Source: Escherichia coli
GTDB lineage: Bacteria; Pseudomonadota; Gammaproteobacteria; Enterobacterales; Enterobacteriaceae
Length of the DNA stretch: 64,000 nucleotides
Reading direction: 5' to 3' (one strand)
Assembly: GCF_044324785.1 (NCBI RefSeq)
Contig: NZ_CP172127.1
Every line of letters starts with the position of its first letter. The first letter of the stretch is position 1. The position numbers are program-made. This document shows positions 13,471-15,730 of this stretch, one piece after another.

Positions 13471-15730
13471 ATAAATGAAGTGACTGTCCATCAGAAACAG
13501 TAACAACTATTTTCACCCGATCGTCCGGGGAAATATTTAAACTCAACTTCGTCAAAGCAATGGGTTGATTAGCAGGCAATGAGAGGGTCTTTTCTTGCTT
13601 CGTCTGACTTTGCCCTGAACTGCCTTCGCGCAGGGACAATATTTGTACTCTGCACAGACAAGATTGAGTAAGAGTGACTTCAGGAATAATGGTGTACATA
13701 TCCCCTTGCTGGGTCGTATTAAAGGTTATCTGACTGGAAAGTGCCGCAAGGAGTAATAACGCATTCATATTCTTCTCCCGAAAAAAAACAGGGCTTGCGC
13801 CCTGTTTCTTTAATACAGAGGATGTATTAGTACTGATGAGCGGTCGCGTTGTTACCAAAGCCAACCTGAGTGACGTTAACGCTGGAGTTAGATGCAGTCT
13901 GGTCAACAGCAGCACCGTTACCGCCACCGAACTGTTTAACAGTCATAGTAGAATCTTTACCATTCCACTGATCAAGAGTAGCGCTGTTGCCGAAACCACG
14001 CTGAGTCAGATCGATTGAGCTGTCATCAGAACCTTGGCCAACATCTGCGCCGTTACCGCCGCCGTGCTGGGTAATGGTCAGATCAGAGTTACGGGCGTCA
14101 GCTTGCAGAGCAAGAGCAGAGTTACCGCCACCGTACTGGTAAATGTTCAGCTCTGAATTCGGGCCGCTGTTATTACCGCCACCACCGTGGTTACCGCCGC
14201 CGCCGTACTGAGGAACAACACCTGCCAGAGCGCTACCGGAGAATACGATTGCTGCAATTGCTGCTACTTTTAAAAGTTTCATGTAAAACCCCCATCGGAT
14301 TGATTTAAAAGTCGAATGGAAATTAACGTTGTGTCACGCGAATAGCCATTTGCGACTGTCTCTGCACTACAATTGCCGTTTTTTGAGTACCATACTGTGT
14401 AATATTTGCTTTATTACCAGAACCTTTCTGGATAATCATCGCAGTATTACCATAAGCACCTTGCGAAATACTGGCATCGTTGGCATTGCCCGCCTGATCA
14501 ATATATGCAAGGTTATAATCTCCTGTCTGGTCAATCTTTGCCCGGTTGCTACTACCTTCTTGCGCAACAACCGCCAAAAGTTTTGAGCCTCCCTGCCGTA
14601 CCTGAGCACTATTATTAGTCCCAGCTTGACCAATTATGGCTGCCTGATTAAATGAAGACTTACTCAATTCATTTACCGCGAAGTTATATTCTGAATTAGC
14701 TAAATCATAACCTGCTGCGGCTGCAATCCCAGGCGCACCCAGTATTGTTAACATCATAAATAACAATTTGTTTTTCATGTTGTCACCCTGGACCTGGTCG
14801 TACATTTAAGAAATTAAATCATTTCAACTTGGTTGTTAACGCAACCTGTATTTTGTTAACGCTGCGTTACGATGGAAAGTATGTCTGCGGAAATATTTTT
14901 AATAACTCACCCGCGCGTTGTATTTTTCTTTTTTTGTTCATACCAAAGTATTAAAACCCACGTAAATACGCTGTTATCTACGCAAAAAAATATTTTGTTT
15001 TCTTTTAAATCTCCGTTTTCCGCAATCAAAAATCACCAGACAGCCATTCTTCTTGCCCGTCGCTGATTGCTGCGATATGTCTTGCGCACAAGCCGTGACA
15101 AACCTCGTCTTTTTGCAGTAAAAAATTGTCCACGGAGGTGTGAAGAAAAAACAAGAACGTTTTACATGACGAAAGCACTACACCGAAATATTTTTTATAT
15201 GCATTATTAGTAAGTTAGCACCATTTGTATGATTTTTTAAAATTGTGCAATAAAAACCAAATGTACAACTTTTCTATCATTTCTAAACTTAATAAAACCT
15301 TAAGATTAACATTTTAATATAACGAGTTACATTTAGTTACATGTTTAACACTTGATTTAAGATTTGTAATGGCTAGATTGAAATCAGATGTAATCCATTA
15401 GTTTTATATTTTACCCATTTAGGTCTGATTTATTACTACACACAGCAGTGCAACATCTGTCAGTACTTCTGGTGCTTCTATTTTAGAGGCAGCTGTCAGG
15501 TGTGCGATCAATAAAAAAAGCGGGGTTTCATCATGTTTAATGAAGTCCATAGTATTCATGGTCATACATTATTGTTGATCACTAAACCTTCTTTGCAGGC
15601 GACAGCTCTCTTGCAGCACCTTAAACAATCGCTGGCAATTACAGGAAAATTACATAATATTCAACGTTCTCTGGACGATATATCTCCAGGCTCTATTATT
15701 CTTCTGGATATGATGGAAGCGGATAAAAAG

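Follow-up and report, generated by a model that had tools for sequence, protein, structure and literature searches.

A sequence-intact curli locus with a K-12-like csgB-csgD control region and a rare base change in the csgD leader of an Escherichia coli chromosome

The curli (csg) locus of Escherichia coli is already known, and it is an ordinary, well-studied system. Transcription of csgD by RNA polymerase carrying RpoS is helped by OmpR~P bound at -49.5, by MlrA bound at the palindrome at -146, and by IHF, and the CsgD protein that is made activates csgBAC via the CGGGTGAGTTA box. The leader of the csgD mRNA takes input from OmrA/B, McaS, RprA and GcvB together with Hfq and RNase E, and Holmqvist 2010 reportedly presented this leader as a small-RNA hub. 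RpoS, MlrA, CsgD, OmpR and IHF are considered to be indispensable for curli expression, which is lost in the absence of rpoS, mlrA, ompR, ihfA or hfq and which also needs diguanylate cyclases and ihfAB (PMC12713406). According to a review, single base changes in the csgD control region can alter curli expression (PMC13304067). Within the leader, stem-loop I and the adjacent A/U tract form an Hfq platform that is needed for full McaS-stimulated, RNase E-dependent cleavage, and RprA and GcvB also trigger cleavage in the A/U tract (PMC6061853).

The window analyzed here is a 64-kb stretch of an E. coli chromosome, presented in an orientation that is reversed relative to K-12, and it carries the csg locus between ymdA and ycdZ. 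The ORF map and synteny gave the order opgC, clsC, ymdB, ymdA and csgCAB (all on the minus strand), a 754-bp spacer, and csgDEFG on the plus strand, so that csgBAC and csgDEFG diverge over the spacer. The order continues after csgG with ycdZ, ycdY, ycdX, ghrA, the tRNA-Ser gene serX and ycdU, followed by a 31.7-kb island, the remnants of dgcT and pgaC, and finally pgaD, phoH and efeUOB. The coordinates of the individual features are collected in Table 1.

Table 1. Coordinates of the curli genes, their control elements, the base differences from K-12 and the PNAG operon remnants in the window
Feature	Position	Strand	Basis and remarks
csgC, curli chaperone, 110 aa	13436..13768	-	K-12 length, internal stops 0, 2 aa changes; synteny with K-12 and O169:H41 annotation
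csgA, major curlin, 151 aa	13827..14282	-	K-12 length; 34 nt and 3 aa changes vs K-12; protein identical to that of strain H1
csgB, minor curlin (nucleator), 151 aa	14323..14778	-	K-12 length; 2 aa changes; identical to H1
csgB-csgD divergent control region, 754 bp	14779..15532		gap-free K-12 alignment
CsgD box CGGGTGAGTTA upstream of csgB	14903..14913	-	single window match to CGGGKGAGNKA, 0 mismatches; identical to K-12
Substitution	14935		-450 from csgD +1; K-12 alignment
Substitution	15024		-361 from csgD +1; K-12 alignment
Substitution	15033		-352 from csgD +1; K-12 alignment
Substitution	15044		-341 from csgD +1; K-12 alignment
Substitution G->A	15143		-242 from csgD +1; K-12 alignment
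Substitution	15176		-209 from csgD +1; K-12 alignment
Substitution	15218		-167 from csgD +1; K-12 alignment
MlrA palindrome AAAATTGTGCA-N12-TGTACAA	15239..15268	+	-146 to -117; identical to K-12
mqsRA-like palindrome, here AACCTTAAGATT (K-12 AACCTTAAGGTT)	15296..15307	+	adjoins CpxR box, inside IHF site
Substitution G->A	15305		-80 from csgD +1; K-12 alignment
OmpR D1 box GTTACATTTAGTTACATGTT	15326..15345	+	centred -49.5 from csgD start, as published; identical to K-12
csgD core promoter and transcription start	15351..15385	+	identical to K-12; +1 from published leader length, hexamers putative
5' part of csgD leader	15386..15477	+	Rfam ES056 (RF02752), 115.3 bits vs gathering score 43
Stem-loop I of csgD leader	15413..15424	+	K-12 ACCC AUUUA GGG, here GGU; element and role from PMC6061853
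Substitution G->T	15424		+40 from csgD +1, -109 from AUG; K-12 alignment
Stem-loop II (OmrA/B target), A-tract, Shine-Dalgarno region, stem-loop III	15450..15532	+	identical to K-12; positions -83 to -28 from PMC3465796
csgD, 216 aa	15533..16183	+	vs K-12: S19P, S52P, S110A, Y148F
csgE	16188-16577	+	protein identical to K-12
csgF	16602-17018	+	protein identical to K-12
csgG	17045-17878	+	protein identical to K-12
dgcT 3' end remnant	54978-55301
Deletion junction, pgaA/pgaB/5' pgaC/most of dgcT	55294..55301		BLAST vs K-12; imperfect 8-bp microhomology ACGRCCAG
pgaC remnant, first 59 codons lost	55294-56443		1150/1326 nt left
pgaD, intact 137-aa ORF	56445-56858

When the seven csg ORFs were compared with those of K-12, all were found to have ATG starts, K-12 lengths and no internal stops, and neither a frameshift nor an insertion was seen. 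This bears out the claim of an earlier note on this DNA that the seven genes are uninterrupted. A 160-aa ORF call at csgB is an in-frame upstream extension of the 151-aa csgB. The whole 6.65-kb csg locus is the same, base for base, in the independent assemblies GCA_054573775.1 and GCA_044084935.1, and because of this identity the sequence can be taken as real and not as an assembly artefact. The best match among 5426 complete E. coli genomes reached 99.9% for the spacer and 99.3% for the whole csg locus. The arrangement is that of the canonical E. coli curli locus, in which csgBAC and csgDEFG are read divergently from a 754-bp control region; all seven genes and the cis elements are present in the K-12 configuration, and the locus is presumed to be expressed and to be under normal regulation. 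Judged from its sequence, this is the known curli system in intact form, probably functional and carrying natural polymorphisms, and we hold this reading with good confidence.

The flanks of the locus contain several other features. The Rfam family ES036/CssrF was matched at 5249-5291 (+) with 47.1 bits, above its gathering score. Directly after serX (tRNA-Ser, 21078-21162), a 180-bp unit is repeated in 3.4 tandem copies of 97% identity at 21147-21767; a copy of the tRNA 3' end stands at the head of each unit, ahead of a terminator-like hairpin, and the array is also present in K-12. On the strand opposite phoH, at 56913-57106 (+), Rfam Ysr251 (an antisense RNA family) was matched with 191.8 bits, again above the gathering score.

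On the minus strand, the start codon of csgB ends at 14778, and on the plus strand, csgD begins with its ATG at 15533; the intergenic region is therefore 14779-15532, or 754 bp. The K-12 MG1655 spacer, at 1103197-1103950, also has 754 bp, and the alignment of the two contained nine substitutions and no indels (745 of the 754 bases the same, 98.8% identity). The earlier note had described an uninterrupted spacer of this length, and both the coordinates and the description proved exact. The spacer is widespread, being present at a coverage of at least 80% in 5329 of the 5426 complete E. coli genomes, with 406 complete-genome records at least 99% identical across it, and eight of the nine substitutions are common to the complete genome NZ_CP062824.1. 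The nine base differences are best viewed as natural lineage polymorphisms that are probably neutral or near-neutral. The positions used here are relative to csgD +1, which was set at 15385 from the 148-nt leader (PMC3465796); the 147-nt count (PMC6061853) would give 15386. Coordinates of the regulator footprints come indirectly, by way of PMC4894380, PMC3535384 and PMC12388358.

The OmpR box, core promoter, MlrA palindrome, CsgD box, stem-loop II and ribosome-binding site are all free of substitutions relative to K-12. The sequence GTTACATTTAGTTACATGTT of the OmpR box was matched once in the window, with no mismatches, while 0.02 matches were expected by chance with three mismatches allowed, and the box is partly conserved in other Escherichia and in Salmonella. 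What the earlier note had called a recognisable OmpR box is hence an exact copy that is unchanged from K-12. The MlrA palindrome also gave a single match in the window with no mismatches, at a chance expectation of 0, and we take its position to agree with the published site at -146 to -113 (Ogasawara 2010). On the csgB side, the first 156 bp upstream of the gene are identical to K-12. They include the CsgD box. Its consensus, CGGGKGAGNKA, is said to come from Brombacher 2003. On the csgD side, the identity with K-12 is unbroken from -79 to +39 (spacer columns 528-645), and the part from -60 to +39 hardly varies among the loci of other Escherichia and of Salmonella, the latter having a single difference. 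The alignment with K-12 that the earlier note had proposed revealed no promoter-inactivating change in the spacer, and none of the known promoter-up or promoter-down mutations was present in the csgD core promoter and start region. A generic sigma-70 scan was uninformative for this RpoS-type promoter: it gave 2 promoter-like sites where chance alone would give 3.5, and the real csgD promoter was not among them. The word "intact" is right for the architecture of the region, but not every functional element in it matches the reference exactly.

The change at -80 affects a site reported for MqsA, a palindrome whose neighbours are a CpxR box at -68 to -80 and an IHF site at -37 to -96 (PMC4894380). 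The G->A substitution breaks this palindrome (AACCTTAAGGTT to AACCTTAAGATT), touches the edge of the CpxR box, and lies inside the IHF site, which is the only IHF site that was placed. The 61-mer with the -80 allele occurs exactly in 2000 of the 5136 genomes that have the segment (39%), and because of this frequency the change is regarded as ordinary variation. In a systematic study, the deletion of mqsR, cpxR or rstA had no effect on csgBA expression (PMC12713406). The frequency of the allele and the lack of effect of the mqsR deletion ruled out the -80 change as a notable loss of MqsA control. Elsewhere, in the middle of the spacer, the G->A change at 15143 (-242), which is common to strain H1, makes TGTGA, the consensus of a CRP half-site, next to a poor other half.

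The whole 148-nt csgD leader is present, and its A/U tract and McaS site are unchanged from K-12. The substitution at 15424 replaces the third G on the G-side of stem-loop I, at -109 from the AUG. The change is contained in RprA site Ia, which covers -119 to -108 of the csgD mRNA (PMC3465796), and on the DNA it falls in an RcsB footprint that extends from -31 to +53 (PMC12388358). The 61-mer of the window at this position was found exactly in one of 5331 complete genomes (TUM14771), and the K-12 61-mer was found exactly in 5184. Because other Escherichia loci carry G at this position, T is the derived state. It is present on two csg backgrounds, that of the window clone and that of TUM14771, which are ~1% different across the locus, and a close relative that shares the CsgD allele has G. 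Recurrence or recombination could each give this distribution, and two cases are not enough to tell which.

If the rare base has an effect, it might be to loosen the post-transcriptional repression of csgD, and this would result in CsgD and curli levels that are higher or that are less sensitive to Rcs and envelope stress. The derived state of the base and its presence on two different backgrounds fit such an effect, and so do some of the predicted structures. The isolated stem-loop I hairpin is predicted to weaken from -3.5 kcal/mol in K-12 to between -0.7 and -1.1 kcal/mol in the window and to change register, forming a stem of A-U, C-G and C-G with a six-base loop, and the Rfam ES056 model flags a non-canonical pair at this base. 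These hairpin energies were preferred because the full-leader MFE folds, in which the stem-loop I region is part of a larger helix for both alleles, disagree with published probing, which gives that larger helix no support. RprA is also predicted to pair less stably with region I, the duplex going from -35.9 to -31.8 kcal/mol with the loss of one G-C pair. In published experiments, deletion of stem-loop I reduced McaS-dependent cleavage and repression, but the effect was smaller than that of deleting the A/U tract, and the Hfq Kd was unchanged (PMC6061853). Moreover, single mismatches in csgD or RprA left repression by RprA in place, with sites I and II being redundant (PMC3465796). The predicted McaS duplex is the same for both alleles, and the slipped 3-bp stem is predicted to form at a probability of ~0.9 in the full leader. 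In addition, Salmonella naturally has A at the position equivalent to -109 and, following the A/U tract, a similar hairpin with a slipped 3-bp stem. Two occurrences are also too few for an argument from selection. The predicted effects of the G->U change at -109 are mild. With computed effects this small, and with published mutagenesis that suggests redundancy of the sites, a loosened repression of csgD appears unlikely. If the variant did alter small-RNA repression, it would be a natural example of single-base tuning at the csgD mRNA hub. The stronger proposal, that the derived G->U change is adaptive, partly uncoupling CsgD synthesis from cleavage driven by Rcs/RprA and by McaS and thereby raising curli output in a lineage whose PNAG was lost by the equally rare pgaAB-dgcT deletion, is very unlikely.

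The preferred reading, a curli system that is intact and probably functional, also has to be weighed against the CsgD protein itself. At two of its four differences from K-12, S19P and S110A, the protein has the residue that is usual in other Escherichia and Salmonella, and it is K-12 that stands apart. The other two, S52P and Y148F, are lineage-specific. Position 52 is S, T or A between species in the CsgD alignment and is proline only here, seven residues before D59. Y148 is invariant in the other eight aligned sequences, which are from Escherichia, Shigella and Salmonella, and the Y148F change is located in the linker before the HTH domain. The locus may thus look intact while curli are absent or misregulated, either because of S52P or Y148F or because of defects in trans outside the window, for example in rpoS. 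Mutations in rpoS are common in natural isolates. None of rpoS, ompR/envZ, mlrA, ihfAB, hfq, dgcE, dgcM and the cellulose genes is located within the 64-kb window, and the genes whose loss abolishes curli (rpoS, mlrA, ompR, ihfA and hfq; PMC12713406) are all outside it. Even so, 246 contigs labelled E. coli carry exactly this CsgD protein, a number that suggests a successful lineage allele and not a recent lesion; the change from Y to F is conservative, and neither D59 nor any part of the C-terminal HTH domain is altered. A regulon that had been silent for a long time would be expected to decay, and the other six csg genes are without decay, CsgE, CsgF and CsgG being identical to K-12. A silent or misregulated curli system behind an intact-looking locus is therefore quite unlikely, and we retain the reading of a probably functional system with natural polymorphisms.

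The earlier note had also described the PNAG operon as deleted. When the K-12 region was compared with the window by BLAST, positions 2672-8922 of the K-12 comparison locus (L001) had no counterpart. This stretch contains pgaA and pgaB in full, the initial 176 nt of pgaC, the promoter region of the pga operon, and most of dgcT (1046 of its 1359 nt). In terms of the pgaABCD genes, pgaA (the porin), pgaB (the deacetylase) and a full-length pgaC with its promoter are absent, and pgaD is present. The operon has thus been disabled by deletion, and to say that it is inactivated by deletion is right; "deleted" is slightly too strong, as pgaD and the 3' part of pgaC remain. The same deletion junction was found in one of the 5426 complete E. 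coli genomes, that of strain N3, where the remnants are annotated as partial pseudogenes. A matrix based on curli rather than on PNAG, as had been proposed from this combination, is a reasonable guess at the level of the genotype. Cellulose, which was absent from the reasoning of the earlier note, is the other CsgD-dependent matrix polymer. That the strain keeps a sequence-intact curli system beside a disabled PNAG operon provides context for predicting its biofilm matrix.

The island next to these remnants is a 31.7-kb segment at 23243-54977, in the place that IS3D and the ymdE pseudogene occupy in K-12. Going by the annotation of close relatives, it contains a fatty-acid/polyketide-type cluster (ketosynthases, an ACP, a FabZ-like dehydratase, an SDR oxidoreductase, a LolA-like protein and an ABC transporter), which presumably resembles an aryl-polyene cluster. 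The same kind of annotation identifies a two-partner secretion pair that consists of an FhaC-like transporter and a 1270-aa FHA-like protein at 38420-42232. A chaperone-usher fimbrial operon is present at 43623-50247, and an EAL-domain protein is encoded at 53281-54891; the usher and the EAL-domain protein are both intact here, and both are frameshifted in strain N3.

In comparison with known systems, the locus has the organization of that of K-12 MG1655 (b1037-b1043), with which it shares the gene order, the ORF lengths, the 754-bp spacer, the mapped OmpR, MlrA and CsgD elements, and the core promoter. The surroundings differ, as K-12 has IS3 where the strain of the window has the 31.7-kb island, and K-12 keeps pgaABCD and dgcT. 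The closest complete genome for the spacer is that of the O169:H41 strain Res13-Lact-PER13-34 (NZ_CP062824.1), in which 753 of the 754 bases are the same. Its csgB and csgC are the same as those of the window, and it has the same fatty-acid/polyketide-type gene cluster adjacent to ycdU, but it carries G at the position of 15424 and a CsgD without S52P and Y148F. Compared with the csgD leader that has been characterized as a small-RNA hub (Mika 2012, PMC3465796; Andreassen 2018, PMC6061853), the leader of the window differs by the U at -109. The csgD (agfD) of Salmonella enterica is also divergently arranged, with a conserved core promoter and an OmpR D1-type box (PMC13304067). Its sequence has diverged in two places, upstream of about -60 and over the initial 60 nt of the leader. 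Because the segment from -60 to +39 is identical to K-12, the sites of the known Salmonella promoter-up changes are unaltered in the window.
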